Shown here piece after piece: positions 4,708 to 64,000 of a stretch of 64,000 nt of DNA (position 1 is its first letter; each line of letters begins with the position of its first letter). The notes beneath the pieces are model-generated. The model ran no database searches. It saw only the letters and a list, made by a program, of their open reading frames with translations, and had not been told where the DNA came from. The DNA lies in NCBI GenBank assembly GCA_002349565.1, contig DEDN01000035.1, positions 74,812 through 138,811 on the forward strand, in the 5' to 3' direction. Both the position numbers and the translations under genes were made by a program. The DNA is from Alphaproteobacteria bacterium UBA2903. Its GTDB lineage: Bacteria > Pseudomonadota > Alphaproteobacteria > CAAGCB01 > CAG-977.

Positions 4708-7365
4708 ATGGACGCCTATCTACAAACGAAAGAACAAGTTTTAAACAATCTGGAAGTATCCGAAAACAAAGGATTGTCCGAAGAACAGGCGGTCGATAAC
4801 GCCGTTCGTTTCGGGACGAATTCCTTGTCCAAACCGCCAAAGGAATCTTTGATGAAAAAAATCGTCGATTCCCTGTTGGAACCGATGGTGCTGATGCTGA
4901 TCGTCGCGGCGATGATTGCCGTCGGCGTCAACGTTATTCGCGATATAAACGGGGAACCGACCGAATACATAGAATGTGTCGGCATCGTTATCGCAATCGG
5001 ACTGTCCGTTGCCATCTCCTTAACCATGGAGGGAAAGTCCGCAAAGGCGTTCGAGGCTTTGAACAAAATCAAAGATGATGTGCCCGCAAAAGTTTTCCGC
5101 AACGGAAAAGTTCGTCTTATCAGCCAAAAAGATTTGGTCGTCGGCGATATCGTCTGCATCGAAACGGGTGCAAAAGTTCCCGCAGACGGCCGTTTAATCG
5201 AAAGTCGGGATTTGCAGGCGGAAGAAGCGTCCCTGACCGGAGAAAGCGAACCCGTCAAAAAAGATGCGGATTGGGTGGCAAAAGACATTGACACTCCGCT
5301 TGCCGAACGCAGAAACATGCTTTATTCGGGGACTTTCATCACGGCGGGGGCGGGACGCATGATTGTCACCGCCGTCGGCGACGAAACGGAATTCGGCGTG
5401 ATTGCTCGCGAATTGTCCGCAACGGAAAAAGCGTTGACGCCTTTGCAGGAAAAACTGGCTCATTTGGGAAAAGTCATTGCCGTGTGGGGTGTTTCCATGG
5501 CAGGGTTGGCGTTCATCATTCAGCTGTGTTATTTTTTGGCGCGCGGAACCGCCAGCGTTTCAACGGTTTCCGAGGCGTTCATTGCCAGCATCGTGCTGAT
5601 TGTCGCCGCCGTTCCCGAAGGATTGCCTACGACGGTTGCGATTTGCTTGGCAATCAATATTATCAAGATGTCCAAAGAAAACGCTTTGGTCAAAAAAATG
5701 GTCGCGTGCGAAACCATCGGCTGCATCAACGTGATTTGTTCGGATAAAACGGGGACGCTGACGGAAAACCGCATGACGGTCATCGAGGTCTGCGAAGACG
5801 GCAAAATCAAACAGCCTCAAGACGTTTCCAATGAAAACCTGCTGCTGAATTTTTGTTTGAATTCGACGGCGGATATCGGATTTGAAGAGAACAGTTACAC
5901 CTTTATCGGCAATCCGACCGAATGTGCTTTGCTGGTCGCGACGGACAAGGCCGGCAAGGATTATCAAGCTATCCGCCGCTCGCGTGCTTTGGCTCACACT
6001 TATCCGTTTTCGTCGGAAACGAAAAATATGACGACAATCGTCGAAGCCGGCGGTGTTGCGACGGCTTATACAAAAGGCAGTCCCGAAAAAATCCTGTCGA
6101 TGTGTCCGCTGTCGGATGCGGAGCTAAAACATTATGAAGAGATGATTCGGGCGTTTCAGGAAAAAGCGTACCGCGTTATCGGTTTTGCGCATAAAACGTT
6201 GGATCAAATTCCCGCCGACTTTGAGGCCGCACGCACTTCGGTTGAAAGCGGCATGATTTTCGACGGCTTTGCGGCGATTGCAGATCCGTTGCGCAAAGAA
6301 GTTTTTGAAGCCGTTCGCAACTGTCGCGACGCAGGTATCGATATTAAAATGCTGACGGGCGACAACATTGTTACCGCTTCTGCGATTGCCCGCGAACTGC
6401 AACTGCTTGGCGATGATCATATTGCGGTCGAGGCGCGCGACATCAACGATATTTCAGACAAGGAATTGGCGGCTATGTTGCCAAAAATCCGCGTCATCGC
6501 GCGCAGCACGCCCGTAATTAAAATGCGCGTCGTCAAATTGTTGAAAGAATTGGGTGCCGTCGTTGCCGTAACGGGCGATGGCATCAATGACGCTCCGGCG
6601 ATTAAAAACGCCGATATCGGGCTTGCCATGGGTATTTCGGGAACGGAAGTTTCCAAAGAAGCCAGCGACGTCGTTTTGCTGGACGATTCTTTTTCCACCA
6701 TTGTCAAAGCCATTCAATGGGGACGCGGTATTTATGAAAACTTCCAGCGGTTCATCCTGTTCCAGCTGACGGTCAATCTGTCGTCAGTCGTTGTTGTCTT
6801 GGCGTCGATTATCGCGGGATTTCCGACTCCGTTCACCGCGCTTGAACTGTTGTGGGTGAATTTGATTATGGACGGCCCCCCCGCTTTGACGCTGAGCTTG
6901 GAGCCGATTCGCAGTTCTTTGATGAAAAACAAGCCGACCCCGCGAAATGCAAGCATTGTATCGCGCGAAATGCTGGTTCGGATTATTTTTGGCGGATTGT
7001 TCATTTCGGCGCTGTTCATGCTTCAAACATTCCGCAACGTTCTGGGTGCGACGCCGGAACAGCAGGGGACGGTTTTGTTTACGCTGTTCGTGATGTTCCA
7101 GTTGGTCAACGCGTTCAACTGCCGCGAATTGACGCATGACAGTTTGTTTAGGCATTTCTTTGACAACAAATTGATGTTGGTTGCGTTTGCCTGCACATTC
7201 CTGCTTCAAGTCGCCATTACGCAGTACGGGACTGTCGTGTTCGGAACGGTTCCTTTGCCGTTGGCGATGTGGGTGAAAATAACGGCGTTGTCCGCAACCG
7301 TCATTTTTGTGTCCGAGGTGTTTAAAATCGCTAACAGACTTTATGCCAAATTCAAAGAAAACTAA
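4708..7365 (+). CDS. P-type cation-transporting ATPase (Ca2+/Mg2+ type, P2/P3 family)
   Basis: The DKTGTLT phosphorylation motif, TGDN and VTGDGINDAPAIKNADIGLAMG are present, with about 10 TM segments. The track ORF begins at 4627, but the conserved N-terminus starts at MDAYLQTKEQVL (ATG at 4708). Confidence 0.9.
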   Translation: MDAYLQTKEQVLNNLEVSENKGLSEEQAVDNAVRFGTNSLSKPPKESLMKKIVDSLLEPMVLMLIVAAMIAVGVNVIRDINGEPTEYIECVGIVIAIGLSVAISLTMEGKSAKAFEALNKIKDDVPAKVFRNGKVRLISQKDLVVGDIVCIETGAKVPADGRLIESRDLQAEEASLTGESEPVKKDADWVAKDIDTPLAERRNMLYSGTFITAGAGRMIVTAVGDETEFGVIARELSATEKALTPLQEKLAHLGKVIAVWGVSMAGLAFIIQLCYFLARGTASVSTVSEAFIASIVLIVAAVPEGLPTTVAICLAINIIKMSKENALVKKMVACETIGCINVICSDKTGTLTENRMTVIEVCEDGKIKQPQDVSNENLLLNFCLNSTADIGFEENSYTFIGNPTECALLVATDKAGKDYQAIRRSRALAHTYPFSSETKNMTTIVEAGGVATAYTKGSPEKILSMCPLSDAELKHYEEMIRAFQEKAYRVIGFAHKTLDQIPADFEAARTSVESGMIFDGFAAIADPLRKEVFEAVRNCRDAGIDIKMLTGDNIVTASAIARELQLLGDDHIAVEARDINDISDKELAAMLPKIRVIARSTPVIKMRVVKLLKELGAVVAVTGDGINDAPAIKNADIGLAMGISGTEVSKEASDVVLLDDSFSTIVKAIQWGRGIYENFQRFILFQLTVNLSSVVVVLASIIAGFPTPFTALELLWVNLIMDGPPALTLSLEPIRSSLMKNKPTPRNASIVSREMLVRIIFGGLFISALFMLQTFRNVLGATPEQQGTVLFTLFVMFQLVNAFNCRELTHDSLFRHFFDNKLMLVAFACTFLLQVAITQYGTVVFGTVPLPLAMWVKITALSATVIFVSEVFKIANRLYAKFKEN

Positions 7366-7400
7366 AAAAAGGGGGCTTGATAACTCAAGCCCCTTTTTCC
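7364..7400. terminator. Bidirectional rho-independent terminator between the ATPase and htpG
   Basis: An A-run is followed by the hairpin gggggcttga...tcaagcccc and then a T-run. It sits between two convergent genes. Confidence 0.7.
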
Positions 7401-7416
7401 GTAAGGGTTTTTCGGA

Positions 7417-9279
7417 TTATTTCACGGCTTGCAGCATAAAGTCCGTGACGCGCTGAGAAAACGCCGCGGGGTCGCCGATGGGTTCGCCTTCGATGATTTT
7501 GGCTTGGTCGAACAAAACCTGCACCATCGCGCGGTTCGCATCCGATTTGTCGCCCGCCGCGACCTTTTGCGCCAGCAGTTTAATCAGCGGGTGGCGCGGG
7601 TTCAAATCGAAATACCGCGTTGACGCGTACAGCGTCGGCTGATTGTGCTGTTTCATCAGGCGTTCCAAGTGAATGGACACTTCGCCGTCGCCCGCCGACA
7701 ACGCCACGGGGCTTTTGGTCAGACGTTCGGTCGAACGGACTTCCTTGACTTCATCGCCGACGACTTCCTTGGCGAAAGCTTTCAGCGCGTCCATGTCGGC
7801 ATCCGCCGCCTTTTCGTCCGCGTTGCCGTCGACAATCGGGAAGCTTTCCAAATCGACCGCCCCCATTTGCACGGATTTGATTGTCTTTTCCTTGTACTGC
7901 GTCAGCCCCTGCGGCCAAAATTCGTCAATCGGGTCGATCAGAAGCAGGACTTCCAATCCGCGCGCGGCAAAGCCCTCCAACTGCGGATTGTGGCGCAAAA
8001 CGCCCAAATTGTCGCCCGTGATGTAGTAAATGCTTTTCTGGTCGGGCTTCATGCGGGAAATGTAGGCATCAAGCGTGGTCAGCTCCTCGCCGTTTGTCGA
8101 GTAAAAGCGGCACAAATCTGCGATTTCTTCGCGGTTGGACTGGTCTTCGAACAATCCTTCTTTCAGCACCGCGCCGAAAGCGTCCCAGAATTTCAAATAA
8201 TCCTGTTCGTTTTCGGAACGTTTCTTCAGTTCGCCCAAAATGCGGCGCGTGACGCCCGTTTTGATTTTCGCCAGCACGGGCGTTTTTTGCAGCATTTCGC
8301 GGCTGACGTTCAGCGGCAGTTCTTTGGTGTCGATGATGCCCTGCACGAAACGCAGATAGTTCGGCAGAATGTCGGGCGTCTGATCGGTAATGAAAACGCG
8401 GTTGATGTACAGCTGGATTTGCGCGTTGCGGTTGGGCTGAAAGATGTCGAACGGCGTTTTCGTCGGAATGAACATCAAAGCCGTGTATTCAATCGTTCCT
8501 TCGGCGCGGTAATGCAAAGTGTCCCACGGATCGTCGAACGCTTTGGAAATATGGCGGTAAAAGTCGTTGTACTGTTTTTGCGTGATTTCGGCTTTGTTGC
8601 GCGTCCAAAGGGCGCTTGCCTGGTTGATTGTTTCCGTTTCACCCAAATAGTGCATGACGACGGGAAAAGAAATGTGGTCGGAAAACTGGCGTACAATCGT
8701 GCGGACGTCGCCCGCTTCGGAATAGTTATAATGGTCGGGCTTCAAGAACAGCTTGACTTGCGTTCCGCGGGGAACGTCCGGTTCTTCGGCGACGGTGAAA
8801 TCGCCGTGTCCCGTCGACGTCCACAGCCAGCCTTGTTCTTCGCCCGCCTTGCGGGAACGGACTTCGACTTTTTCCGCAACCATGAAAGCGGAATAAAAGC
8901 CCACGCCGAACTGTCCGATAATGGTCGCGTCCTTTTGGCGGTCGCCCGTCAGGTTGTTCAGAAATTCGGCGGAACCCGAACGTCCGATACTGCCCAAGTC
9001 TTTAATCAAGTCGTCGCGGTTCATGCCGATTCCGTTGTCGGCGATGGTCAAAGTATGCGCGTCTTTGTCGGGGGTAATGTCGATTTTGAATTCGCCGCCC
9101 TCTTTGGCGATGTCGGGGCGGGTAATCGCCGCATAGCGCAGTTTGTCGCACGCGTCGGACGCGTTGGACACCAGTTCGCGCAGAAAAATATCCGTATTGG
9201 AATACAAAGCGTTGACGACAATATCCAGAACTTTGCCGACTTCCGCTTGGAATTGCATTTTTTCTTCAGCCATAGACAT
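7417..9279 (-). CDS. htpG: Molecular chaperone HtpG (Hsp90)
   Basis: The N-terminal GHKL ATPase motifs (ELVSNASDA, IADNGIGM, GQFGVGFYS) are present. The length is about 620 aa with a C-terminal dimerisation region. Confidence 0.9.
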   Translation of the reverse strand: MSMAEEKMQFQAEVGKVLDIVVNALYSNTDIFLRELVSNASDACDKLRYAAITRPDIAKEGGEFKIDITPDKDAHTLTIADNGIGMNRDDLIKDLGSIGRSGSAEFLNNLTGDRQKDATIIGQFGVGFYSAFMVAEKVEVRSRKAGEEQGWLWTSTGHGDFTVAEEPDVPRGTQVKLFLKPDHYNYSEAGDVRTIVRQFSDHISFPVVMHYLGETETINQASALWTRNKAEITQKQYNDFYRHISKAFDDPWDTLHYRAEGTIEYTALMFIPTKTPFDIFQPNRNAQIQLYINRVFITDQTPDILPNYLRFVQGIIDTKELPLNVSREMLQKTPVLAKIKTGVTRRILGELKKRSENEQDYLKFWDAFGAVLKEGLFEDQSNREEIADLCRFYSTNGEELTTLDAYISRMKPDQKSIYYITGDNLGVLRHNPQLEGFAARGLEVLLLIDPIDEFWPQGLTQYKEKTIKSVQMGAVDLESFPIVDGNADEKAADADMDALKAFAKEVVGDEVKEVRSTERLTKSPVALSAGDGEVSIHLERLMKQHNQPTLYASTRYFDLNPRHPLIKLLAQKVAAGDKSDANRAMVQVLFDQAKIIEGEPIGDPAAFSQRVTDFMLQAVK

Positions 9280-9356
9280 AAACCTCCTTGTATCTGACCG
9301 CCCTTTTACTTATGTTTTAAGGACGGTTTTTTCAAGCCCCGCAAAGGAAAAAAACA

Positions 9357-11882
9357 ATGGCTTCGGTTTTAAGCGCGCTTTTGGGACCCACGAACACGGG
9401 TAAAACCTATCTGGCGGTCGATAAAATGCTGTCGCACAAAAGCGGTATGATAGGATTTCCGCTGCGCCTGCTCGCCCGCGAAAACTACGACAAAATCGTG
9501 CGCCGGAAAGGCGTCGAATCGGTTGCGCTGATTACGGGCGAAGAAAAGATTTTACCGAAAAATCCGTCTTATTTCGTCTGCACGGTCGAAGCGATGCCGC
9601 TGGAACGCCCCGTGTCGTTTCTGGCGGTGGACGAGATTCAAATGGCAGCGGATCCCGAACGCGGACATATCTTTACCGACCGACTGCTGCATGCGCGCGG
9701 CATTAACGAAACCATGTTTTTGGGCGCGGAAACAATCCGTCCTTTGCTGAACAAGCTGCTGCCCGACTGCGCGATTGAAACGCGCCCGCGGTTTTCCAAG
9801 CTGACCTATACGGGGGTCAAGAAAATCACCCGTCTGCCGCCGCGTTCGGCGATTATCGGCTTTTCTTTGCAAGACGTGTACGCTCTGGCGGAGCTGATTC
9901 GCCGTCAAAGGGGCGGCGCGGCGGTCGTAATGGGCGCGCTCAGCCCCCGCACGCGCAACGCGCAGGTCGAGATGTTCCAGTCGGGCGAAGTCGATTATCT
10001 GGTCGCGACGGACGCAATCGGCATGGGATTGAATTTACAGGTCGAACACGTCTGCTTTACGTCTTTGCGCAAATTCGACGGGCAAAGGATGCGGATGCTG
10101 ATTCCCGCCGAGCTGGCGCAAATCGCGGGACGGGCGGGACGCTACATGACCGACGGCACGTTCGGGGTCGCCGCCGAAGCGACCGCCATGACCCAAGACG
10201 TCATCGACCGAATCGAGGAACACCGCTTTGAATCTTTGGCGGGGTTGTATTGGCGCAATCACGACATCAAAACGACATCGACGGACGCTTTGCTGTACAG
10301 CTTGGGCAAACGCCCGACGCTTTCGGGGCTGATTGGCGCGCGCAAAGCCGACGACCAGTTGGTTTTGGAGGAGCTGCTGCGCGACGAATCGGTCAAAAAA
10401 CTGGCGGACACGCCCGCGGCGGTGGAACTGTTGTGGAACGTCTGCCAAATTCCCGATTTCGGAAAAGTGTCGCCGCAAGCGCATGCGCGCTTGTTATCGC
10501 AGATTTATCGGGCTATACTGACGGACGGTTGCCTGCCGCAAGACTGGTTCGCCAAGCAAGTGGCGCGGCTGGACAATACGAACGGCGACATCGATGTCGT
10601 TACGGGACGTATTGCGGGAATCAGAATTTGGACGTATATTGCTCAGCGCAAAGGATGGGTCGGGCAATCCGCGTTCTGGCAGGACAAAACCCGCGCCGTC
10701 GAGGACAGGCTTTCCGACGCTTTGCATCAAAAGCTGACTCAACGGTTCGTGGACAAGCGGACTTCTATTTTGGTAAAAGGCATGAAAACACAGGTTGAAT
10801 TGGTAACGGAAATCGACGAAAACGGAAACGTCGTTGTTGAAGGACAGGATATCGGAAAGCTGGAAGGATTGCGCTTTCAGCCGATTACGGGCGAAGGCAA
10901 ATACGCCGACCGCGTTTTGATGAACGCCGCGGAAAAAGCGCTGAGCGCGGAATTTCAATCGCGCGCCGCGGCAATATCCGCCGCCCCCGACGAAGAATTT
11001 GCGTTGGAAAACAACGCGGCAATCCTGTGGAAAGGGCAAATCATCGCCAAAGCCGTCAAAGGGCGCGATTCTCTGCATCCCTCTGTTGCCGTTTCGGCGC
11101 ACGAAACGCTGGATTCCGCGCTGATTGAACAGGTCAAATCCAAACTGACGGGCTGGCTGGAGGTATACCTTGCCAACAAAATTGCACCGTTGTTTACGGC
11201 TTTGCGCACGCTGGACGAAGAACACGCAACGGGCGCGGCGCGCGGTATTTTGTGGCAGGTCGCCGAAGCGTTCGGCACAATGCCCCGCGGCGCGGTCGCC
11301 GATTTGATTAAAAGCTTGAACGAAGCCGACAAAAAAGTGCTAGCGAAAGCGGGATTGCGCTTGGGACACGATTATTTGTTCTTCCCGCTGCTGCTCAAAC
11401 CCGCGGCTCAGCGCGTTTTGGCGATTTTGTGGAAGATTTGGAACGACAAAACGCAATACGCGAGGGGCTTTGCCACGGACGGCAAGATGTCGTTCGCCGT
11501 CGAACGCGGCGTTCCCCGCGCTTTGTATTTGGTGCAGGGCTATGCGACGACGGGCGCGCGCGCGATTCGCGTCGACGTAATGGAACGTTTTACCGCCAAA
11601 CTGCGCGAAGTCACGCGTCAGGACAAGGGCAAACCGCAAATTCTGCCGTTGGAACTGCTGTCTTTGGCGGGACTGAAGCGCGACGAAGCCGAAGAAGTGT
11701 TCGGCTATCTGGGATTCAAAGTCACCAAGGAAACGCAGACGACGACCGTCGGCGAAGAAACCAAAGAAACGGAAGTGCTGATGATTCAGCCGAAATTCCG
11801 CAAACCCAAAGCGCAAAAAGCGGACGAAAAGCCCGTCGATATGTCGTCGCCGTTCGCGGCATTGGCGGCGTTGCGCAAATAA
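9357..11882 (+). CDS. SUV3-like ATP-dependent helicase (helicase-related protein)
   Basis: A Walker A motif (GPTNTGKT) and a DEIQ box are present. The N-terminal region resembles SUPV3L1-type bacterial helicases, and there is a long C-terminal extension. Confidence 0.7.
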   Translation: MASVLSALLGPTNTGKTYLAVDKMLSHKSGMIGFPLRLLARENYDKIVRRKGVESVALITGEEKILPKNPSYFVCTVEAMPLERPVSFLAVDEIQMAADPERGHIFTDRLLHARGINETMFLGAETIRPLLNKLLPDCAIETRPRFSKLTYTGVKKITRLPPRSAIIGFSLQDVYALAELIRRQRGGAAVVMGALSPRTRNAQVEMFQSGEVDYLVATDAIGMGLNLQVEHVCFTSLRKFDGQRMRMLIPAELAQIAGRAGRYMTDGTFGVAAEATAMTQDVIDRIEEHRFESLAGLYWRNHDIKTTSTDALLYSLGKRPTLSGLIGARKADDQLVLEELLRDESVKKLADTPAAVELLWNVCQIPDFGKVSPQAHARLLSQIYRAILTDGCLPQDWFAKQVARLDNTNGDIDVVTGRIAGIRIWTYIAQRKGWVGQSAFWQDKTRAVEDRLSDALHQKLTQRFVDKRTSILVKGMKTQVELVTEIDENGNVVVEGQDIGKLEGLRFQPITGEGKYADRVLMNAAEKALSAEFQSRAAAISAAPDEEFALENNAAILWKGQIIAKAVKGRDSLHPSVAVSAHETLDSALIEQVKSKLTGWLEVYLANKIAPLFTALRTLDEEHATGAARGILWQVAEAFGTMPRGAVADLIKSLNEADKKVLAKAGLRLGHDYLFFPLLLKPAAQRVLAILWKIWNDKTQYARGFATDGKMSFAVERGVPRALYLVQGYATTGARAIRVDVMERFTAKLREVTRQDKGKPQILPLELLSLAGLKRDEAEEVFGYLGFKVTKETQTTTVGEETKETEVLMIQPKFRKPKAQKADEKPVDMSSPFAALAALRK

Positions 11883-53356: not shown

Positions 53357-54028
53357 ATGCGGGAAGCAGTCGATAAAACACAAGATGATTTGCCTTTTTT
53401 GTTTTTGCGGAAAAGCTATGCCGATTATGAAAAGGCGGTCGTAAAATGTGATGATTTGCTGGCGAAAAATCCGTCGGACGCGACCGCTTATTATATCCGT
53501 TCGATGGCGCGGTTCGGTATGGCGTCATTGGTTCCGACGAAATTCATCGGTGATGAAACCGTTTCGGAAAAGCGGATCGATGCCGTTTGCCGTGAAAACG
53601 CGGACACTTTTCAAAAAATCAGAAAGCGGCTTTCGGCGGAAGCGCAAAAAGACCCGAATAATAAAGATCATCTCATTTCGGAACTGACTTTCGGATTTTG
53701 GGCTTATCTTTTTTCCTCCGCCTACAAGAAAGCGTTATGGAGCAAGCATCCGACCTTGTTGAAGGAAATCTTCGACTGCACGAAGGAAACGCTTGTTTCG
53801 GGGCGCGTTTACGAACGTGTCAACAGAATACGTATGTATAGGAACAAGGTGTTTCATTACGGTTCTTTGATAACGGTAACGGATGCTTTGAACGAACCGG
53901 CGAGAATCCACAATATGATTTACAAGCTGATTCGCGATATGAACGCTAACTCGGTTCTGAAACAAATAAAGGAAATCGACCGCTTTAACGAGGAATACAC
54001 CAAAGGACGCCGGTTGGGATTTTTGTAA
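53357..54028 (+). CDS. Abi_2/HEPN-like abortive-infection family protein
   Basis: ELTFGFWAYLF resembles the Abi_2 LSFGEL motif. An Rx4H HEPN motif (RNKVFH) is present. The protein is 223 aa. Confidence 0.45.
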   Translation: MREAVDKTQDDLPFLFLRKSYADYEKAVVKCDDLLAKNPSDATAYYIRSMARFGMASLVPTKFIGDETVSEKRIDAVCRENADTFQKIRKRLSAEAQKDPNNKDHLISELTFGFWAYLFSSAYKKALWSKHPTLLKEIFDCTKETLVSGRVYERVNRIRMYRNKVFHYGSLITVTDALNEPARIHNMIYKLIRDMNANSVLKQIKEIDRFNEEYTKGRRLGFL

Positions 54029-55967: not shown

Positions 55968-56210
55968 ATGGAAATCAGGAAAGAATATTTAACGCGCGGA
56001 CAAGCGGCTGAATACTGCATCAAACAGGGCTTGCCCGTCAGCCAGAAAACTTTGGCGAAATACGCGTGCGTCGGCGGCGGACCGAAGTTCCGCAAGTTCG
56101 GGACAATGCGCGTCGTCTATAAAATCACCGACTTGGACGAATGGATTGAGCAGCGCTTGTCCGACACTTTTGCGGCGACGGGAATCCCTTGCGGCGGAGA
56201 TGACGCATGA
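55968..56210 (+). CDS. AlpA/Xis-family HTH DNA-binding protein (third paralog)
   Basis: The sequence MEIRKEYLTRGQAAEYCIKQGLPVSQKTLAKYACVGGGPKFRKFGTMRVVYKITDLDEWI is collinear with the proteins at 44664-44882 and 48709-48933. Confidence 0.6.
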   Translation: MEIRKEYLTRGQAAEYCIKQGLPVSQKTLAKYACVGGGPKFRKFGTMRVVYKITDLDEWIEQRLSDTFAATGIPCGGDDA

Positions 56211-56415: not shown

Positions 56416-57894
56416 GTGAAAATGATAACGGGTGTCATAAAAAACAAAATCGACAATATTTGGACGATCATCTGGGCGGGCGGAATAACCAATCCGATTA
56501 CAGTGATTGAACAGCTGACTTATTTGATGTTTATTCACGATTTGGACGTCAAAGAGCTTGAAACGGAGCGGTTGGAAAACCTGACGCATACGAAAATGGA
56601 AAGGATTTTTCCGCAAACACCTGCGGGACAGGCGTTAAGGTGGCACAATTTCAAAGACAAGAACGCCGCCGAGATTTTTGCGACTTTAAAAGACCGCGTT
56701 TTCCCGTTTATCAAAAACGAGTTGGGTAAAGACGAGCAGTCCGCTTTTTCCCGTTACATGAGCGACGCTCTGTTTTTGTTTCCCACGCCGCAGATTGTTG
56801 AAAGAGTCGTTACGGGATTGGACGATTTGTATCAACACGACCTTTCGGGGTTGGACGTTCAGGGCGACTTGTACGAATATATGCTGGATAAATTGGCGAC
56901 TTCCGGAAAAAACGGGCAATTCAGAACACCGGCGCAAATCCGCAACATGATGGTTCGCCTGATCGAACCGACGCCGGATTCAAAGATTTGCGATCCGGCG
57001 TGCGGCACGGCGGGCTTTTTGATTTCAAGCGCGGAGTTTATTCGTTCCAAATATGAAAACGTGATGACTTCGGAACAATGGGATCACTTTGCGGGCGATA
57101 TGTTCAGCGGGTTCGATATGGACAAGACGATGTTGCGAATTTCCGCAATGAACCTGATGCTTCATTCAATCACAACGCCGACGATCGAATATCGGGACAG
57201 CGTTTCCAAAACGAACGACATCGCCGAAGAATACGACATCGTACTGGCAAACCCGCCGTTTGCGGGAACGATCGACAAAGAAGGCGTCAGCGACGATTTG
57301 AAACGCGTCTGCAATACGACGAAAACGGAACTGCTGTTTATCGCTTTGTTTTTAAGAATGTTGAAAAAGGGCGGTCGTTGCGCCTGCATCGTCCCCGACG
57401 GCGTTTTGTTCGGCACGACCAAAGCCCACCAATCCCTGCGCAAGGAACTGATTGAAAACCATAAATTGCAAGCCGTGATTTCCATGCCGTCGGGGGTGTT
57501 CAAACCCTATTCCGGCGTTTCGACAGCCGTTCTGGTCTTTACCAAGACGGGCGCGGGCGGCACGGACAAGGTTTGGTTTTACGATATGAACGCCGACGGG
57601 TTCAGTCTGGACGACAAGCGCAATCCCGTTGAGGAAAACGACATTCCGGACATTCTGGCGCGGTTTCATAATTTGGCGGGCGAAACGTCGCGCGCCCGCA
57701 CGGAACAAAGCTTCTTCGTCCCTAAATCCGAAATTGAACAAAACAATTACGATTTGTCGATCAACCGGTATAAAGAAGTCGTCCACGAAAAAATCGAATA
57801 CGACAAACCCGACGTTATCTTGACCCGCATCGACACCCTCATCGCCGACATCGCGGCGCAAACGAAAAAAGTCAGAGAAATGCTCAATGGATGA
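56416..57894 (+). CDS. hsdM: Type I restriction-modification system methyltransferase subunit HsdM
   Basis: An HsdM N-domain and an N6-adenine MTase core (DPACGTAGFL, LANPPFAG) are present. Confidence 0.9.
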   Translation: MKMITGVIKNKIDNIWTIIWAGGITNPITVIEQLTYLMFIHDLDVKELETERLENLTHTKMERIFPQTPAGQALRWHNFKDKNAAEIFATLKDRVFPFIKNELGKDEQSAFSRYMSDALFLFPTPQIVERVVTGLDDLYQHDLSGLDVQGDLYEYMLDKLATSGKNGQFRTPAQIRNMMVRLIEPTPDSKICDPACGTAGFLISSAEFIRSKYENVMTSEQWDHFAGDMFSGFDMDKTMLRISAMNLMLHSITTPTIEYRDSVSKTNDIAEEYDIVLANPPFAGTIDKEGVSDDLKRVCNTTKTELLFIALFLRMLKKGGRCACIVPDGVLFGTTKAHQSLRKELIENHKLQAVISMPSGVFKPYSGVSTAVLVFTKTGAGGTDKVWFYDMNADGFSLDDKRNPVEENDIPDILARFHNLAGETSRARTEQSFFVPKSEIEQNNYDLSINRYKEVVHEKIEYDKPDVILTRIDTLIADIAAQTKKVREMLNG

Positions 57895-58471
57895 TACTGT
57901 TTTAATAAACAGCCTGAAAAATGCTGTTGAACAGCTTTATGAAAAAGATGCGTATTTGTTGCACAGCAACCACGAATTGCACGAGCAAACCGTTTCGCAT
58001 AGATTGGCGGTGTATTTGGAAAACAATTTAAGAAAATTCTCTATATTCCGAGAAAACGACTTTTCTGTTGATTGCGAATATAACAAAAACGGAAAGAAGT
58101 TAAAAATAGTTTCTTGTTATAGCTGCCCTAATAGAGATTGCGTTTTATTAGAAAACAGATCTTTTGAAAAAATAAACTGTGTTCGTCCGGACATTATCGT
58201 TCATAAAAGAGGGAATAATTTTCCGACAAATTTATTGATAGTTGAATTAAAAAAGAAAACAAACAAAAATTTTAATGAAAAATATAAAGATAAAATGAAA
58301 TTATCCGCTTTCACTTGTCAAAGACAGGAAGACGAAAAACATCATTACCAATACCAACTTGGCTTTTTTATTGAATATAGTGGTAAAGCGATGGCTTTAC
58401 AGGAATTTAAAAACGGAAAAGAAACAGCTGTTTATAGCTTTGATGCCGAAACAAAAAAATGGACAGATTGA
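57887..58471 (+). CDS. Restriction-linked ORF: small PD-(D/E)xK nuclease-fold protein inserted between hsdM and hsdS
   Basis: The AT-rich ORF overlaps the hsdM stop by 8 nt (ATGGATGA). The motif ...CVRPDIIVHK...LLIVELKKK fits PD...(D/E)xK. Confidence 0.55.
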   Translation: MDDTVLINSLKNAVEQLYEKDAYLLHSNHELHEQTVSHRLAVYLENNLRKFSIFRENDFSVDCEYNKNGKKLKIVSCYSCPNRDCVLLENRSFEKINCVRPDIIVHKRGNNFPTNLLIVELKKKTNKNFNEKYKDKMKLSAFTCQRQEDEKHHYQYQLGFFIEYSGKAMALQEFKNGKETAVYSFDAETKKWTD

Positions 58472-58472
58472 T

Positions 58473-59561
58473 ATGAACAAATGGAAAAAAGTTAAATTAG
58501 GAAAGCAATTAAAACGCATTAGAACAGGAAAACTTGATGCAAATGCATCAAGTGAAAATGGGATATATCCTTTCTTTACTTGCTCTGTATTTCCACTAAA
58601 AATAGGGACGTACAGCTATGATTGTGAATGTGTACTTGTTGCAGGGAATGGAGATTTAAATGTAAAATATTACAATGGAAAATTCGATGCTTATCAAAGG
58701 ACGTACATACTTGAAGTTTTAGATAAAAATATTTTAAATACACGATATTTTTATTATTTTATGAAAGATTACATTGATATTTTAAGAACCAAAACAAAAG
58801 GAGGGGTTATTAAATATATTCGCCTTAATGATATAGCAGATGCGGAAATCCCTCTGCCGGCGATGGAGGAGCAGAAGAAAATCGCGGCGCGGTTGGACGC
58901 CGTTTCCGATTTGCTGGCAAAACAAAAACAACTGCTGTCCGAACAAGACAACCTGATCCAATCCCTCTTTTACGATATGTTTTTAAAACAAAATTTCTCT
59001 AAACGAAAAATCGTAGATTTTGTTGAAACCGATGTGAAAAATGCAAAAAAAATATTTAATAAAAATAACTTTATTAAATATATTGATATTTCGTCAATAG
59101 ATAATAATTCAAATATCATAACAGGTTATACACATATCGAGTTTTGTGATGCTCCATCCAGAGCGCAACAAGTCGTCAAAAAAAATGATATCCTTGTTTC
59201 AACAGTAAGACCTAATCTGAAAAATATTGCTTTAATAAAGTTTAACGATAATAATCTTGTTGCCTCTTCTGGTTTTTGCGTATTACGAGCTAAAAATATA
59301 GAACCTGTTTTTTTGCTATACAATGTTCTTTCTCAGGATTTTACAGAAAAAATGGTAAGTGCTGTAACGGGAGCGAACTATCCTGCTATTAAAAATTCAG
59401 ATATTTTAAATTATAAGATTCCTGTTCCTCCTCTTGAATTACAGGAAAAATTTGCGGCGATCGTCGAACAAATCGAATCCGAAAAATCGAAAATCAAATC
59501 CGCCATCGCCGAAACCCAAACCCTTTTCAACGCCCTAATGTCTGAATATTTTGAGGATTAA
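58473..59561 (+). CDS. hsdS: Type I R-M specificity subunit HsdS
   Basis: Two target-recognition regions are separated by conserved HsdS coiled-coil repeats (LPLPAMEEQKKIAARLDAVSDLL; LPVPPLELQEKFAAIVEQIE). Confidence 0.85.
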   Translation: MNKWKKVKLGKQLKRIRTGKLDANASSENGIYPFFTCSVFPLKIGTYSYDCECVLVAGNGDLNVKYYNGKFDAYQRTYILEVLDKNILNTRYFYYFMKDYIDILRTKTKGGVIKYIRLNDIADAEIPLPAMEEQKKIAARLDAVSDLLAKQKQLLSEQDNLIQSLFYDMFLKQNFSKRKIVDFVETDVKNAKKIFNKNNFIKYIDISSIDNNSNIITGYTHIEFCDAPSRAQQVVKKNDILVSTVRPNLKNIALIKFNDNNLVASSGFCVLRAKNIEPVFLLYNVLSQDFTEKMVSAVTGANYPAIKNSDILNYKIPVPPLELQEKFAAIVEQIESEKSKIKSAIAETQTLFNALMSEYFED

Positions 59562-59562
59562 A

Positions 59563-61353
59563 ATGGATATAGAAAGTAAAGCCGTCTCAGCGATAAATGA
59601 TAAAATTGCAGATATTAACAGACTGAAATCTTTTATAACGCAAAATGACAAGACGCCCGCTTATGATGGCTCTATAGCAATTTATAAAAATGATAGCACT
59701 AAAAATGAAAACATGGATTCTTCCGTTCGCGTTCAAGTAAAAGGACGTGAAACAGATGATTTGTCTTTAAAAAATATTGAATATCCAGTTGATATATCTA
59801 ATTTAAAAATATACCTAAATGACGGTGGCGTTTTATTTTTTGTTGTCCTTATTCACAAGGAAACAAAAGAAACAAAAATATATTACAACTCTCTGCTTCC
59901 GTTTAAAATCAATTTTCTACTTAAAAATTTAAGAAAATCACAAAAAACAAAAAGCATTACCTTAAAAAGGTTTCCACAAAGTGAAAATGACATCATTGAG
60001 TTGCTTGTGAATTTTTCAAGAGATTCAAGCAAACAATGTAATGTGTGCAATATAGGCGTTTTATCATTAGAAGAATTAAAAAATAGAAACGAGCCAATTT
60101 GTAACTTACAAAGTTTTTATTATGCAACAAAAGGGAATACCTCTTCTGCGCCAGATCGTATTTTTGAAAAAGAGATATACCAATATGCTGTCAGCGCGAC
60201 AGGTGTTTTTTATCCGATAGCTCAATTTTCTCTTTCAGAAATATTACAAGATGTAACTGCTAATGTAATTTGCAAAAACAAAAAAGTATTCGAAAAATTT
60301 GTCATAAAACGAACGAACAATAGTATTTATATTATTATCGGAGAGAGCATAACACTTAATTTAGAAAAAGATGCGCTAACAAATGGAGGGACTGCAATTA
60401 TTACATTTTCTCCTCATGGTAGCATTTCAAATAGAATTAAAGCGTCAAATCTCATGCTTGATATTCTTAATGAAAACGAAGTTCAAATTGGAGACGCAAA
60501 AATATTAAACATCTCAAAAGAAAATCCGTCCCCAATTGATGAAAATGAGATTAAGAAAAATATATCTTTCTTAGAAAATGTTCAAAAAGCTTGTGTTAAA
60601 GCTGGTATAGACGCTGAAAATATTTCAGAAGAAATTGTTTTCGATGTGCAAACTCTTCAATTTTTAATAGATGTTTTTATAAAAAATGAGCCTAAATCCT
60701 TAGAAACAAATGTTTCTGAAAAAGAAAGTTTTGGCTTACTATCAATAGGTCAGAAAAATATGAAGCTTTTGATTTTCGCAAAAAACATTCATGATAAAAT
60801 ATATAAAATAAGCAATTATTTTTATGCAGATTTCTCCTCTGTAATGAAAAATGACAATGGTTTAGAATACGCAGTAAGCAGATATGTCCCATTAAAAAAG
60901 GAACATTTTGCAAAAGCATTAAATATTCAATACGATGAAATTGCTGAAGATGTTTTTAAATATAAGCATACTGAACAATATCATTACAATGTGACGCTAA
61001 TGTTACTTGAAATGATTAAAGCGTTTGATGAAACAGGTACTACCGCATTATATAAAGCAATAATAGATGTTGCGGAATGGTTACAAAAATTTAATGGGAC
61101 GGAAAAAGAGAAAGATTTAAGCGACATCAATTATATTCAGTGCAAAAAACGGAAAGAACCTATCAATGATACGGATAAATTGACGTTATATAGAATATGT
61201 GAGAAAAACGTAGAAGAAGACATCAAGCTTGCATGTTACATTCTTCTTGATATGAAAGAAAAAGCAAAAGAGGTTTTTGACAATCTCGATTCGAAAACAA
61301 AAGAAATTTTCGAAAAATTCCCCATTTATACGCTTTATAAAAAAATGTTTTAA
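59563..61353 (+). CDS. Restriction-linked ORF: 596-aa AT-rich protein, possible Mrr/DUF4365-like N-terminal nuclease domain
   Basis: The start is immediately after the hsdS stop, with a GAGGA RBS. The N-terminus has YDGSIAIY...VRVQVKGRE (a D...QxK pattern). The remainder is unrecognised. Confidence 0.5.
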   Translation: MDIESKAVSAINDKIADINRLKSFITQNDKTPAYDGSIAIYKNDSTKNENMDSSVRVQVKGRETDDLSLKNIEYPVDISNLKIYLNDGGVLFFVVLIHKETKETKIYYNSLLPFKINFLLKNLRKSQKTKSITLKRFPQSENDIIELLVNFSRDSSKQCNVCNIGVLSLEELKNRNEPICNLQSFYYATKGNTSSAPDRIFEKEIYQYAVSATGVFYPIAQFSLSEILQDVTANVICKNKKVFEKFVIKRTNNSIYIIIGESITLNLEKDALTNGGTAIITFSPHGSISNRIKASNLMLDILNENEVQIGDAKILNISKENPSPIDENEIKKNISFLENVQKACVKAGIDAENISEEIVFDVQTLQFLIDVFIKNEPKSLETNVSEKESFGLLSIGQKNMKLLIFAKNIHDKIYKISNYFYADFSSVMKNDNGLEYAVSRYVPLKKEHFAKALNIQYDEIAEDVFKYKHTEQYHYNVTLMLLEMIKAFDETGTTALYKAIIDVAEWLQKFNGTEKEKDLSDINYIQCKKRKEPINDTDKLTLYRICEKNVEEDIKLACYILLDMKEKAKEVFDNLDSKTKEIFEKFPIYTLYKKMF

Positions 61354-61781
61354 AACACTTCAAAAAACTTTCTGAAAATCGGCGGCAATTCTTTTGACGT
61401 TTTCGCGCCGTTCTGGATGCGCCGCAAAATTTCGTCCGAAACGGTGCATTTATAACGGAAGCTTTGCGCCAGCTGTTTTTTGACGACGTCACTTTGCTTT
61501 ACCGCCTTTGCCCATTCGTATCGCGCGAACGACGGTTTAATGATAACGCCCCGCCCGTCGTCCGCCGTGATTTCGCCGATATCGAAAGTACAAGCGTCGT
61601 CGTAGTATTTGCATGCCTGCCCGTTATAAGAATAACGCCCGTTTTCTTGGAATTTAATAGAAGAAATCGGAATGACCAGCATTTCATCGTCCGCGTTTAT
61701 ATCGGACGCGATAACGATATAATGCGGCGCTTCGGCATTTGGAACGTCCGCGAAAAAGCAAACGCCCTTACAATGCATCAT
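61350..61781 (-). CDS. Putative toxin partner of the Panacea-domain antitoxin (unknown family)
   Basis: The 143-aa ORF overlaps the upstream Panacea gene by 14 nt. No known domain is recognised. Confidence 0.4.
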   Translation of the reverse strand: MMHCKGVCFFADVPNAEAPHYIVIASDINADDEMLVIPISSIKFQENGRYSYNGQACKYYDDACTFDIGEITADDGRGVIIKPSFARYEWAKAVKQSDVVKKQLAQSFRYKCTVSDEILRRIQNGAKTSKELPPIFRKFFEVF

Positions 61782-62304
61782 TCAAGCCGCAAACAAATTC
61801 ATATTCTTCTTTGGCTTCGCGGATTTCCGCGTCACTGCGTCCCAAAGCGCGCATAATGTCGCAATAGCGGATTTTTTTGCTGCTGTTTTGCGGATCATGC
61901 CATTCGGGCAGATTTTTATGCGTATAATCTTCCAACTGAAAGGAAGTGTAATGTCTGAACCGTTCGGAAACGGTCGAGATATATTCCTTGTCCTTTTCGC
62001 TGAGCAGGGCAAGCTCTGTTTCCTTTTTGACGGCGATGTCGTTGTAGTATTTGGCGGGCAGGCTTTCCAGCCATTCGCCCCACTCCGAACCGTTTAAATC
62101 GTTCAGCATATTCAGCGTCAAGCTCAAAACGGGACCGTGTTTCATGCTGAAAAAAATGTCGCCCGAAACCGACGTGTCGCGTTCCGCAATGGCTTCGCGG
62201 TCAATCAGATACAATTCTTTCATCAGTTTCAGCAAATTCATTTTGCCGCCGTTCAAACCCAGCAGATAAACGATTTCCTGCAAAACCTTGTCAGATGAAA
62301 ACAT
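61768..62304 (-). CDS. Panacea (DUF4065/SocA-like) domain antitoxin-like protein
   Basis: IVYLLGLNGGKMNLLKLMKELYLIDREAIAERDTSVSGDIFFSMKHGPVLS matches the Panacea/SocA pattern. The start is taken at ATG 62304. Confidence 0.6.
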   Translation of the reverse strand: MFSSDKVLQEIVYLLGLNGGKMNLLKLMKELYLIDREAIAERDTSVSGDIFFSMKHGPVLSLTLNMLNDLNGSEWGEWLESLPAKYYNDIAVKKETELALLSEKDKEYISTVSERFRHYTSFQLEDYTHKNLPEWHDPQNSSKKIRYCDIMRALGRSDAEIREAKEEYEFVCGLNDAL

Positions 62305-62445
62305 AATGCGCGCCTTCCATTCGATTAAGCAACATAACATATATAAGCTTGCTTTACAAAAAAAAATCGAAAAAATCAAAAAACATTTGCCAAAGGTTCA
62401 AACGCAGTTTTACACTTGTAACACTTTGATTGAACGGGGGAAAGC

Positions 62446-64000
62446 ATGGCGAATTTTTCGTTTTTGACAGTGCGAAAGGAATACGTTTTATTCGCCCCCG
62501 CTTGTTTGGAAGCCGAAAAGGTTTTCAAAACCTCCCCCGTTTTGTGCGCTATCGGTTGCCGCAAGGCTTTGGAATTGGCGGTCAAGTGGGTGTACACAGC
62601 CGACAAATCCCTTACCCCGCCTTATAAAGACAACCTTTCCGCTTTGATTTACGAAGACTGTTTCCGTCAAGCCGTTGACGAAGCGACGTGGAAAAAGCTG
62701 AACTATGTCGTCAAGCTGGGAAACCTTGCCGTTCATACGAATAAAACCATTGATGTCGGCGAAGCGTATCAGGCTTTGACGACTTTGTTCGAGTTCGTTC
62801 AATGGCTGGATTACAGCTACGGGCGCGAATACCGGCGCAGAACGTTTGACGCGGCGCAAATTCCCGCCTTGTCTGTCGTTGTTGATGTCGAAAAAGTCAA
62901 AAAACAGGAAGCCCTGCTGGTTCAAAAACAGGCGGAGATCGAACGCTGTCAGGCGGAAATCGCCGCCCAAGCCGAAGAACTTTCCGCCCTGAAAACCGAA
63001 AACCGGAAAAAGCGCGTGTTCGTTCCGACCGATATTTCCGAATGGGAAACGCGCAAACGCTACATCGACCTTGATTTAAAGCTGATGGATTGGGATTTCG
63101 ATCACTTTGTCGGGCAGGAAATCGAAGTCGATAACATGGCGGGCGTCTCCGGTCAGAAGGGATATGTCGATTATGTCCTGTTCGGACAGGACGGCGCGCC
63201 TTTGGCGGTCGTTGAAGCCAAACGGACAAGCAAGGATCCGAATGTCGGAAAACAGCAGGCGAAACTGTACGCCGACGCGTTGGAAAAGCAATACGGCGTC
63301 CGCCCGATGATATTCACGACGAACGGATTTGAAACGTATTTCTGGGACGACTTAGCCGCGCCTCAACGTCCCGTTTTTTCCGTATTCAGTCAGGACGATC
63401 TGGCTCGTCGTATGGCGCGCAGAAATTCCGACATCCGCTTGAAAGGCGTTAAAATCGATACGGCCATCACGAACAGGCCTTATCAGTTGCAGGCGATCGC
63501 CGCCGTCTGCGACCGTTTCGAAAAAGGATTCCGCCGCGCTTTGCTGGTAATGGCGACCGGAACGGGAAAAACGCGCACGGTCATCAGTCTGGTCGATGTG
63601 CTGATGCGCGGGAATTACGTTAAAAACGTCCTGTTTCTGGCGGATCGCCGCGCTTTGGTCGGACAGGCGAAGGAAAATTTTCAGGCTTTCCTGCCGGACG
63701 CTTCCCTGTGCGACCTGTTGTCCGCCAAAGACAATAAAAACGCCCGCATCGTTTTTTCGACTTACCCGACCATATTGAACGCCATTGACGACGTGAAGAA
63801 CGACAAAAACGAACGGTTGTTCACACCGGCGCATTTCGATTTGATCATCGTGGACGAAGCGCACCGCAGCATTTTTAAAAAATACAAGGTCATTTTCGAT
63901 TATTTCGACGCGCCGATCGTCGGGTTGACCGCTACGCCGAAAACGGAAGTCGACCGGAACACTTACGATTTTTTTGAAGTGCCGCACGACAATCCGACTT
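62446..64000 (+). CDS. hsdR: Type I restriction enzyme R subunit HsdR, N-terminal part (runs off window end)
   Basis: ATG 62446 follows a GGGGGAAAG RBS. An N-terminal DUF4145-like region (ALELAVKWVY) is followed by SF2 helicase motifs (LVMATGTGKT, IIVDEAHRS). The frame is open to position 64000, which is why it is absent from the ORF track. Confidence 0.85.
   Translation, partial: MANFSFLTVRKEYVLFAPACLEAEKVFKTSPVLCAIGCRKALELAVKWVYTADKSLTPPYKDNLSALIYEDCFRQAVDEATWKKLNYVVKLGNLAVHTNKTIDVGEAYQALTTLFEFVQWLDYSYGREYRRRTFDAAQIPALSVVVDVEKVKKQEALLVQKQAEIERCQAEIAAQAEELSALKTENRKKRVFVPTDISEWETRKRYIDLDLKLMDWDFDHFVGQEIEVDNMAGVSGQKGYVDYVLFGQDGAPLAVVEAKRTSKDPNVGKQQAKLYADALEKQYGVRPMIFTTNGFETYFWDDLAAPQRPVFSVFSQDDLARRMARRNSDIRLKGVKIDTAITNRPYQLQAIAAVCDRFEKGFRRALLVMATGTGKTRTVISLVDVLMRGNYVKNVLFLADRRALVGQAKENFQAFLPDASLCDLLSAKDNKNARIVFSTYPTILNAIDDVKNDKNERLFTPAHFDLIIVDEAHRSIFKKYKVIFDYFDAPIVGLTATPKTEVDRNTYDFFEVPHDNPT

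Follow-up and report, generated by a model that had tools for sequence, protein, structure and literature searches.

It is already known that type I restriction-modification (R-M) operons carry extra genes besides hsdM, hsdS and hsdR. The paradigm of a latent backup effector among these genes is PrrC, an ABC-ATPase fused to an anticodon nuclease cutting tRNA-Lys, which is encoded in the EcoprrI type Ic locus in the order hsdM-hsdS-prrC-hsdR. Restriction-linked (rlo) open reading frames (ORFs) were reportedly described in the type I loci of Campylobacter jejuni by Miller et al. in 2005. In this study, we describe a small ORF lying between hsdM and hsdS on a contig of Alphaproteobacteria bacterium UBA2903 (DEDN01000035.1, positions 74,812 to 138,811 of the forward strand; the 64,000 nucleotides (nt) analysed are referred to as the window). 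Its product is assigned as a homologue of the anti-phage component PD-lambda-3A and, on balance, would serve as an accessory defence nuclease of the R-M locus.

Two further systems encoded at type I loci have been described recently. In the Ronin model, the effector RonA is neutralised by HsdMS and released by anti-restriction proteins (Silas et al., 10.1101/2023.04.06.535777), and TgvAB, a GmrSD-like type IV system inside the type I R-M cluster of Vibrio cholerae VPI-2, acts independently (10.1101/2024.04.04.588119). PD-lambda-3 came out of a functional selection in E. coli ECOR28, in which it was entered as "Nuclease, HEPN" (Vassallo et al. 2022, PMC9519451), and it behaves as an abortive-infection system in E. 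coli (PMC9519451; PMC13190303). Published HHpred searches matched its A component to BpuSI_N (92%) and PDDEXK_3 (91%), its B component to AbiJ_NTD3 and Hypoth_Ymh, and its C component to a beta-propeller (PMC9519451 supplement). PD-lambda-3A also matched a defence-island seed cluster of Gao et al., and the complete system has been reported from Proteobacteria only (10.1101/2024.10.26.620412).

The type I R-M operon of the window is complete and EcoEI-like, and the small ORF is built into it. Its genes are as follows.

56416..57894, + strand: hsdM, type I N6-adenine methyltransferase, 492 amino acids (aa) from GTG (orthologues are called at 490 aa)
57887..57894, + strand: hsdM/ORF overlap ATGGATGA, 8 nt, out of frame, with the ORF start inside the hsdM end
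57887..58471, + strand: small ORF, predicted PD-(D/E)xK protein of the PD-lambda-3A family, ATG start, 194 aa
58473..59561, + strand: hsdS, specificity subunit, 362 aa
62446..64000, + strand: hsdR, incomplete at the window end, with an open frame that begins at the ATG at 62446

HsdM matched Pfam N6_Mtase (5.1e-64) and HsdM_N (2.1e-11) and, over its full length, PADLOC MTase_I (7.5e-182); HsdS matched Pfam Methylase_S (1.1e-29) and PADLOC Specificity_I (3.4e-51). The partial hsdR is 95-98% identical at the nucleotide level to hsdR of three related loci (L086, L087 and L004), and its orthologues are 1118 aa long, with DUF4145, HSDR_N, ResIII/helicase and EcoEI_R_C domains (Pfam, L086 orthologue at 6210-9566). 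No N6_Mtase, Methylase_S, ResIII or HSDR_N match was found in the small ORF with Pfam and PADLOC, and the operon has a separate gene for each of the three canonical subunits. The hsdM stop codon (TGA, 57892-57894) lies 5 nt downstream of the ORF ATG, and the ORF stop codon (TGA, 58469-58471) is separated by 1 nt from the hsdS ATG at 58473. An earlier reading of the sequence by itself (the sequence-only reading) had placed the ORF, its out-of-frame overlap and the near-abutment to hsdS exactly so. The 8-nt overlap is a predicted site for translational coupling, and the position of the ORF points to its tight coupling to both hsdM and hsdS. The same reading had pointed out a low GC content common to the ORF and hsdS, and the values agree with it: 31.5% for the ORF and 32.7% for hsdS, compared with 49.0% for hsdM (29.3% for a 600-aa gene downstream of hsdS and 51.5% for the partial hsdR). 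A scan for promoters and terminators between the genes was uninformative, as counts were no higher than in shuffled sequence.

Comparisons between homologues indicate that the ORF is an expressed-type gene under purifying selection, because a search of 5.8 billion proteins returned 432 homologues (the closest being 93%, 89% and 82% identical), dN/dS between orthologous loci is 0.17-0.45, and 22 close orthologues show no variation in the start codon, the first 65 residues or any motif residue. A stop-free run of 194 codons has a chance of 3.4e-8 per start position at the local base composition, which over the roughly 128,000 codon positions of the window amounts to about 0.004. The lack of a Pfam or NCBIfam match to the ORF itself could be taken to mean that it is an inactive remnant or a mis-called frame without function. 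However, this explanation is rejected by the dN/dS values and the chance expectation, by the 5,664 related clusters at 50% identity, by the 95-100% conservation of the catalytic residues and by a confident structural model, and its probability is negligible.

Searches of the ORF product gave no match in Pfam, NCBIfam or PHROGs, and a match to the PADLOC model PD-Lambda-3_A at 3.6e-12 (ORF residues 9-145 on model positions 19-134 of 159). A complete PD-lambda-3 locus was located on the IncHI1B conjugative E. coli plasmid p22Q34-1 (NZ_ON934556.1, 43741-46499; L095), beside the BREX gene brxL. Gene A of this locus encodes 159 aa (PADLOC 2.3e-100) and is annotated as a hypothetical protein; gene B encodes a TIGR02391/Ymh protein (PADLOC 1.2e-179, annotated as TIGR02391 family protein); gene C encodes 477 aa, is annotated as a restriction endonuclease and has no component model in PADLOC-DB 2.0. 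The plasmid A protein is 27% identical to the ORF product over 156 residues (BLASTP E 8e-13, phmmer 3.7e-8) with all motifs in register, and it matched 80 of the 80 family members fetched from GTDB genomes (phmmer), which identifies the ORF product as a PD-lambda-3A homologue.

Genomic neighbourhoods were compared in a sample of 79 evaluable loci from different GTDB species, 48 of them with at least 3 kb on both sides. PADLOC results for the downstream neighbours were swamped by redundant type I specificity models, and the PD-lambda-3 B and C proteins were therefore used directly as phmmer queries. PD-lambda-3B (AbiJ_NTD3 and Ymh/HEPN) gave no match in the six-frame translation of the window and was found at only one of the 79 family loci (L063), and PD-lambda-3C (Mrr and beta-propeller) gave no match in the window or at any of the 79. 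The family itself is very large. An exhaustive profile search of 1.84 billion cluster representatives yielded the above 5,664 clusters with an E-value cutoff of 1e-3, and 4,097 with a cutoff of 1e-10. Among the best 150 clusters listed, nearly all were single-domain proteins of 150-260 aa, and no Pfam domain was found in the extra parts of two long relatives (423 and 466 aa) or of the 228-259 aa relatives scanned alongside. The family is spread over many bacterial phyla and reaches into the archaea (among them Halovivax, DHVE2, Methanoflexus and Micrarchaeota), and members were also found on 14 plasmids (11 conjugative) and in one phage record.

The structure of the ORF product was predicted with AlphaFold2 from a 121-sequence alignment (mean predicted local distance difference test (pLDDT) 87.3, predicted template modelling score 0.87). 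The model contains the elements H33-48, E60-62, E103-106, E117-123, H129-143 and E158-164 followed by three more C-terminal strands (H, helix; E, strand), and hence the predicted alpha-beta-beta-beta-alpha-beta core of restriction endonucleases. In the model, D102 opens strand beta2 and E120-x-K122 lies within beta3. Conservation among the 121 homologues was 118 for E33, 121 for D62, C63 and E64, 117 for D102 and H106, 115 for E120 and 116 for K122. The predicted catalytic residues, all intact in the ORF and 95-100% conserved, are encoded as follows.

57983-85, + strand: codon of E33
58070-72, + strand: codon of D62
58076-78, + strand: codon of E64
58190-92, + strand: codon of D102
58244-46, + strand: codon of E120
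58250-52, + strand: codon of K122

The sequence-only reading had recognised a D-(x)n-ExK motif (RPDIIV, with D102, and VELKKK, with E120-x-K122) and had proposed a PD-(D/E)xK protein; both suggestions gain support from the placing of these residues among the most conserved positions of the family, from the predicted topology and from the homology to PD-lambda-3A. Weak profile matches point in the same direction. Recurrent sub-threshold Pfam matches of the 121 members were to PD-(D/E)xK families only (TnsA_N in 16, BsuBI_PstI_RE in 13, Hjc in 10, VRR_NUC in 7 and XcyI in 2), and hhalign against the nuclease domains of eight HsdR proteins placed PDIIVH...IELKK on rrPDiVLF...ViElK, a weak alignment (E 0.0014, probability 17%). 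With Foldseek, the weak PDB matches included MGME1, the putative restriction endonuclease 9y1l and BbvCI (E 0.1-1.3). Among the viral models of BFVD nothing scored below 1e-3 (top matches E 4e-3 to 1e-1), the first three being named nuclease, PD-(D/E)xK and Cas4 (E 4e-3 to 9e-3). Since the sub-threshold Pfam matches, the hhalign result and the published HHpred matches of PD-lambda-3A all support the fold assignment, we regard the classification of the ORF product as a PD-(D/E)xK-type protein as well supported but not proven, and infer that it is a metal-dependent nuclease.

The sub-threshold matches include the junction-resolving families Hjc and VRR_NUC, and the gene layout, in which a nuclease gene overlaps a methyltransferase gene, resembles that of dcm and vsr. 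The vsr gene overlaps dcm, and a repair nuclease is thereby paired with a methylase. The ORF product could accordingly be a housekeeping helper that processes or repairs DNA ends, acts on stalled translocation complexes or takes part in restriction alleviation. We consider this very improbable, however, since m6A, the modification introduced by type I enzymes, leaves no mismatch in need of repair and any minimal PD-(D/E)xK core would give such profile matches; furthermore, the characterised homologue belongs to an anti-phage abortive system, and a solo distribution on plasmids and in islands does not suit a dedicated R-M helper.

A subfamily-specific insert separates beta1 from beta2 in the ORF product.

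58097..58189, + strand: insert, about residues 71-101, with C77-x2-C80-x4-C85 at 58115-58141

A fourth cysteine, C144 (58316-58318), lies outside the insert, after the helix formed by residues 129-143. The CxxCx(n)C motif and C144 were both present in 29 of the 121 homologues and both absent from 87, and three sequences with the motif alone were fragments. In the 22 close orthologues C77, C80, C85 and C144 are invariant and C98 is not conserved. The insert is modelled with low confidence (pLDDT 52-70). The sequence-only reading had seen a possible zinc site in a cysteine pair; a putative metal site is plausible, but the conserved set is these four cysteines and not a pair, and they may form a structural site tying the insert to the core. 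By contrast, C63 is invariant across all 121 family members, and its conservation suggests that it must have a role other than the subfamily four-cysteine site.

Orthologous loci were used to examine the relationship of the ORF to its two neighbours. Wherever the hsdM end was on the contig (L001-L005 and L086-L090), the orthologue was found directly 3' of hsdM with the same 8-nt overlap. Downstream of the ORF the loci vary, with hsdS alleles of 372-396 aa followed by a 593/600-aa gene or a DUF2971 gene and then hsdR. In blastn comparisons with five related loci, a single block of 95-97% identity began upstream of hsdM, took in hsdM and the ORF and ended at window position 58496-58535, in the first 25-60 nt of hsdS, and homology was lost only over the two target-recognition domains (TRDs) of hsdS. 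The blastn breakpoints delimit them as follows.

about 58500-58845, + strand: swapped hsdS TRD1
about 58981-59418, + strand: swapped hsdS TRD2

The conserved hsdS segments are 97% identical in the relatives, and TRD1 and/or TRD2 cannot be aligned; the window hsdS has its TRD1 in common with L004 and its TRD2 in common with L086. Some of the related loci are degenerate. In L001-L003 and L005, a deletion from the hsdS start into hsdR (8586-8675 region) leaves hsdM, the ORF and a truncated hsdR, which encodes a 698-aa HsdR without the N-terminal nuclease domain; in L004 (235-1444), an internal deletion of about 250 nt splits hsdM. The ORF is intact in these degenerate loci and is 100% identical between L001 and L004. 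Because the TRD breakpoints lie inside hsdS and the ORF persists where hsdS has been deleted, specificity swapping is placed downstream of the ORF, and the alignments indicate that the ORF stays with hsdM. The suggestion of the sequence-only reading that the ORF travels with the specificity module is thus not supported, for the ORF is found beside hsdM even after hsdS deletion.

The ORF and hsdM differ in how far they have diverged. Nucleotide identity of hsdM to L086, L087 and L001 is 98-99% (dS 0.03-0.07), compared with 87-95% between loci for the ORF (dS 0.09-0.38), corresponding to 1-2% and 5-13% divergence. The divergence begins at the hsdM stop codon, and the alleles of the ORF combine a few variant blocks in mosaic fashion. 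The ORF therefore appears to behave as a recombining gene of moderate variability, flanked by a conserved gene (hsdM) and a hypervariable one (hsdS). The compositional link to the variable half of the operon, as suggested earlier, is upheld by the low GC content, the divergence and the mosaic alleles, but the presence of the ORF and the breakpoints tie it to hsdM.

The degenerate loci also bear on a different mechanism, in which the nuclease docks on M2S1 and provides HsdR-independent, sequence-targeted cleavage as a fourth subunit or as a substitute for the R subunit. The coupling of the ORF to hsdM on one side and to hsdS on the other speaks for stoichiometric assembly, the ORF is kept beside hsdM where the 698-aa HsdR has lost its nuclease domain, and hhalign aligns the ORF motif with that of HsdR. 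We nevertheless judge an alternative cleavage module to be unlikely, as the same four loci also lack hsdS, so that no M2S1 is possible there, while most R-M hosts of the family have an intact HsdR with its own nuclease domain; in addition, solo members predominate and no interaction surface was identified.

Across the wider family, type I R-M loci held 14 of the 79 members (18%), or 8 of the 48 (17%) with at least 3 kb on both sides. A random gene would be expected to neighbour a type I gene in far less than 1% of cases, a figure which is a general-knowledge estimate and not a computed control. Eight of the 14 are arranged as hsdM-X-hsdS, five as hsdS-X-hsdR and one lies adjacent on the opposite strand; the remaining 13 are co-oriented inside the operon, and in several embedded members stop and start codons overlap or abut on one or both sides. 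The eight hosts using the hsdM-hsdS slot are a Treponema, a deltaproteobacterium, a Desulfamplus, a member of the Ktedonobacterales, two Dehalococcoidia, a member of the Anaerolineae and a DHVE2 archaeon. The sequence-only reading had proposed looking for the ORF in other hsdM-hsdS intergenic positions, and family members do recur there, at 8 of 79 diverse loci. The commonest Pfam domains of the nearest neighbours were N6_Mtase and Methylase_S upstream, and Methylase_S and HsdR domains downstream. In an all-against-all comparison of ORFs of at least 100 aa within 4 kb, the only recurrent neighbours were type I R-M genes and shadow ORFs, and no other recurrent partner was found among small ORFs (35-130 aa) within 700 nt of family members. 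The idea of a conserved partner among the solo members was dropped, as these two clusterings gave only R-M genes and shadow ORFs.

The host HsdR proteins are of several types. That of L038 has an HNH nuclease, those of the window type and L058 are EcoEI-like and carry DUF4145, and those of L009, L025, L027, L048, L053, L055 and L060 are HindI-like. The N-terminus of the window hsdR (62446-62800) carries DUF4145, the same domain family as PD-lambda-3B. A link through this DUF4145/HEPN-like domain was considered and rejected as a general rule, as it is present in only 2 of 10 R-M hosts (the L086 type and L058), and the coincidence between HsdR and PD-lambda-3B is probably not functional.

Taken together, we favour, with moderate confidence, the reading that the ORF product is an accessory defence nuclease of the R-M locus and not a canonical subunit. 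Of the two roles that the sequence-only reading had offered, nuclease effector or HsdS modulator, the effector is the better supported, and no evidence for an HsdS-modulator role was found in our analyses. Several observations weigh against this reading. As to the fold, Foldseek of the model against PDB returned nothing below E 1e-3 (best E 0.027) and a PDB sequence-profile search only chance matches; with no significant solved-structure match, the assignment rests on motifs, topology and weak profile matches. As to the association with R-M genes, about 80% of the family members are solo, with no R-M genes nearby; outside the orthologue group, the closest relatives with the Cys insert (43% identity) are solo genes next to a DUF2130 gene, and a Xanthomonas plasmid member is likewise solo, beside a ThiF/MPN operon. 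This solo majority, which includes the 43%-identical relatives, means that the protein cannot depend on HsdMS in general. The ORF is furthermore kept where hsdS is deleted or hsdM is disrupted, and the presence of at least three HsdR families and two slots also fits passive insertion into a hotspot, in an operon that carries other, unrelated inserts.

These observations suit a hitchhiker, that is, a self-contained defence or toxin nuclease that has repeatedly landed in insertion-tolerant, constitutively transcribed R-M hotspots and has no link to the Hsd proteins. The absence of a conserved large or small neighbour in most members, the scatter of R-M-embedded members among solo ones in a neighbour-joining tree, the use of both the M-S and the S-R slot in different type I families, the further inserts of the window operon (the 600-aa gene and a probable Panacea toxin-antitoxin pair), the survival of the ORF after hsdS deletion, and its low GC content and mosaic alleles, unlike hsdM, would all be expected of such an element. 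Passive hitchhiking is the main alternative and is possible, though we regard it with some doubt, because it leaves unexplained why type I genes are the sole recurrent neighbours, at about 18% of loci, why 13 of 14 such members lie within the operon in the same orientation, in many cases with stop and start codons that overlap or abut, and why the 8-nt hsdM overlap is kept across orthologues that have diverged by 5-13%.

As an accessory defence nuclease, the ORF product would be synthesised through termination-reinitiation, at a fixed ratio to HsdM and HsdS. Purely by analogy with described systems, it would most likely be harmless in uninfected cells and unleashed during infection, and would form a second, abortive-infection-type layer behind restriction. 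The abortive mode is proposed because PD-lambda-3 is abortive and because the effectors PrrC and RonA are held by type I HsdMS complexes; on the same analogy, we infer a backup ("guard") role. Control by M2S1 and autonomous sensing of infection are two options within the favoured reading, which our data do not separate. A more specific proposal is that a PD-lambda-3A-like nuclease is the fourth component of many type I R-M systems, co-translated with HsdM and HsdS and docking on the M2S1 core, where it would act as a guard, cutting nucleic acid if DNA-mimic anti-restriction proteins take over the complex or if HsdR is put out of action; elsewhere this effector module would work alone or be connected to other sensors (AbiJ-HEPN and propeller in PD-lambda-3). 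In this full form the proposal is speculative and rather unlikely.

The remaining genes between hsdS and hsdR in the window are as follows.

59551..61353, + strand: 600-aa protein of unknown function, in the variable slot between hsdS and hsdR
61350..62379, - strand: opposite-strand pair of a SocA/Panacea-domain protein (61768..62379) and a 143-aa protein (61350..61781)

The 600-aa protein gave no match in Pfam, NCBIfam or PADLOC and a full-length match to phrog_9827 (5.6e-62); by eye only, its N-terminus (AYDGSIAIY...VRVQVKGRE) resembles the DUF4365/PD-(D/E)xK motif. In its slot, L087-L090 have a 593-aa relative and L086 and L004 a DUF2971 protein; L001 lacks the gene. The 600-aa protein was rejected as a partner of the ORF, since there are orthologous loci in which the ORF is retained and the 600-aa protein has given way to DUF2971 or is missing. 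The SocA/Panacea protein matched Pfam SocA_Panacea (3.8e-18) and the overlapping 143-aa protein phrog_19071 (6e-7); the pair is absent from related loci and is probably a Panacea-type toxin-antitoxin insertion in the R-M operon.

The whole R-M locus appears to lie on a mobile island. Integrase genes were found 3' of hsdR in L001-L004, and the left junction differs between loci, being formed by a kamA-like gene in the window, truB in L001, a rubredoxin-flavin reductase gene in L087 and 2-Hacid_dh in L086. Two further genes lie upstream of hsdM in the window.

53357..54028, + strand: gene for a 223-aa Abi/HEPN-like protein, where the island begins on the left with low GC, PADLOC PD-T4-5 (1.2e-6) with a weak DUF4145 match, not conserved in related loci
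55968..56210, + strand: 80-aa HTH_17/AlpA-like gene, kept upstream of hsdM in L001-L003, L005 and L087-L089

Until now, PD-lambda-3A has been regarded as one component of a three-gene system that is rare and confined to Proteobacteria (10.1101/2024.10.26.620412). For the ORF family, a PADLOC model and an experimental anchor already exist. Our comparisons suggest that PD-lambda-3A is the tip of a very large bacterial and archaeal family without a Pfam or NCBIfam model, in which the published partners are almost never kept and the type I R-M operon alone recurs as a genomic partner, often at the hsdM-hsdS slot with overlapping codons. Three points appear to be undescribed in the literature searched: that the PD-lambda-3A module forms a huge, mostly solo family, that it recurs in the hsdM-hsdS slot across phyla instead of with its published partners, and that a four-cysteine insert subfamily exists. 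The family may thus be an unrecognised accessory of type I systems, which raises the questions of whether a small accessory nuclease is common in these systems as a second defence layer, and whether it is controlled by the M2S complex, as are PrrC and RonA. Annotators gain a name for a frequent "hypothetical protein" within R-M operons.

Compared with known nucleases, the ORF product has the catalytic PD...(D/E)xK arrangement and predicted core topology of the HsdR nuclease domain (HSDR_N), Hjc, TnsA-N, VRR-NUC and type II restriction endonucleases. HSDR_N and the minimal PD-(D/E)xK enzymes, however, gave no significant sequence or structure match to it, and the invariant VDCEYN strand and the H106/R108 pair are specific to the ORF family. 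The closest described relative is PD-lambda-3A. Both proteins are single-domain, of about 160-190 aa, and homologous over about 150 residues, with the motifs E-x-[ST]-[IV], VDCEYN, PD[IV]IVH-x-RG, [IL]-x-E-x-KK and D-x2-KL in common. They differ in that the ORF product has the Cys-rich insert, of 30 residues, and is extended at its C-terminus by about 25 residues of beta structure, and in that the PD-lambda-3A gene is followed by gene B and then gene C, whereas the ORF is flanked by hsdM and hsdS.

Like the PrrC/RonA-type effectors, the ORF is encoded inside, and co-oriented with, a type I R-M operon. PrrC resembles it as an extra effector gene within a complete type I operon (PrrC is cited in 10.1101/2023.04.06.535777), but the two have no sequence or fold relationship, and prrC occupies the hsdS-hsdR slot instead of the hsdM-hsdS slot. 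In profile scans of the ORF and family members, no ATPase or anticodon-nuclease domain and no match outside PD-(D/E)xK families was found. PrrC associates with the restriction complex; an association of the ORF product with it would be a proposal by analogy. RonA of Ronin is likewise a small effector gene tightly linked to hsdM and hsdS; it is, however, a 61-aa membrane toxin, in contrast to the 194 aa of predicted soluble-type helices and strands of the ORF product, and Ronin lacks hsdR, while the window and most R-M hosts of the ORF family have a full hsdR. TgvAB and the rlo ORFs resemble the ORF as independent defence genes lying between, and co-oriented with, type I R-M genes. They belong to other protein families, whereas the ORF family recurs in its slot across phyla and is often translationally coupled, to judge from its codon overlaps.

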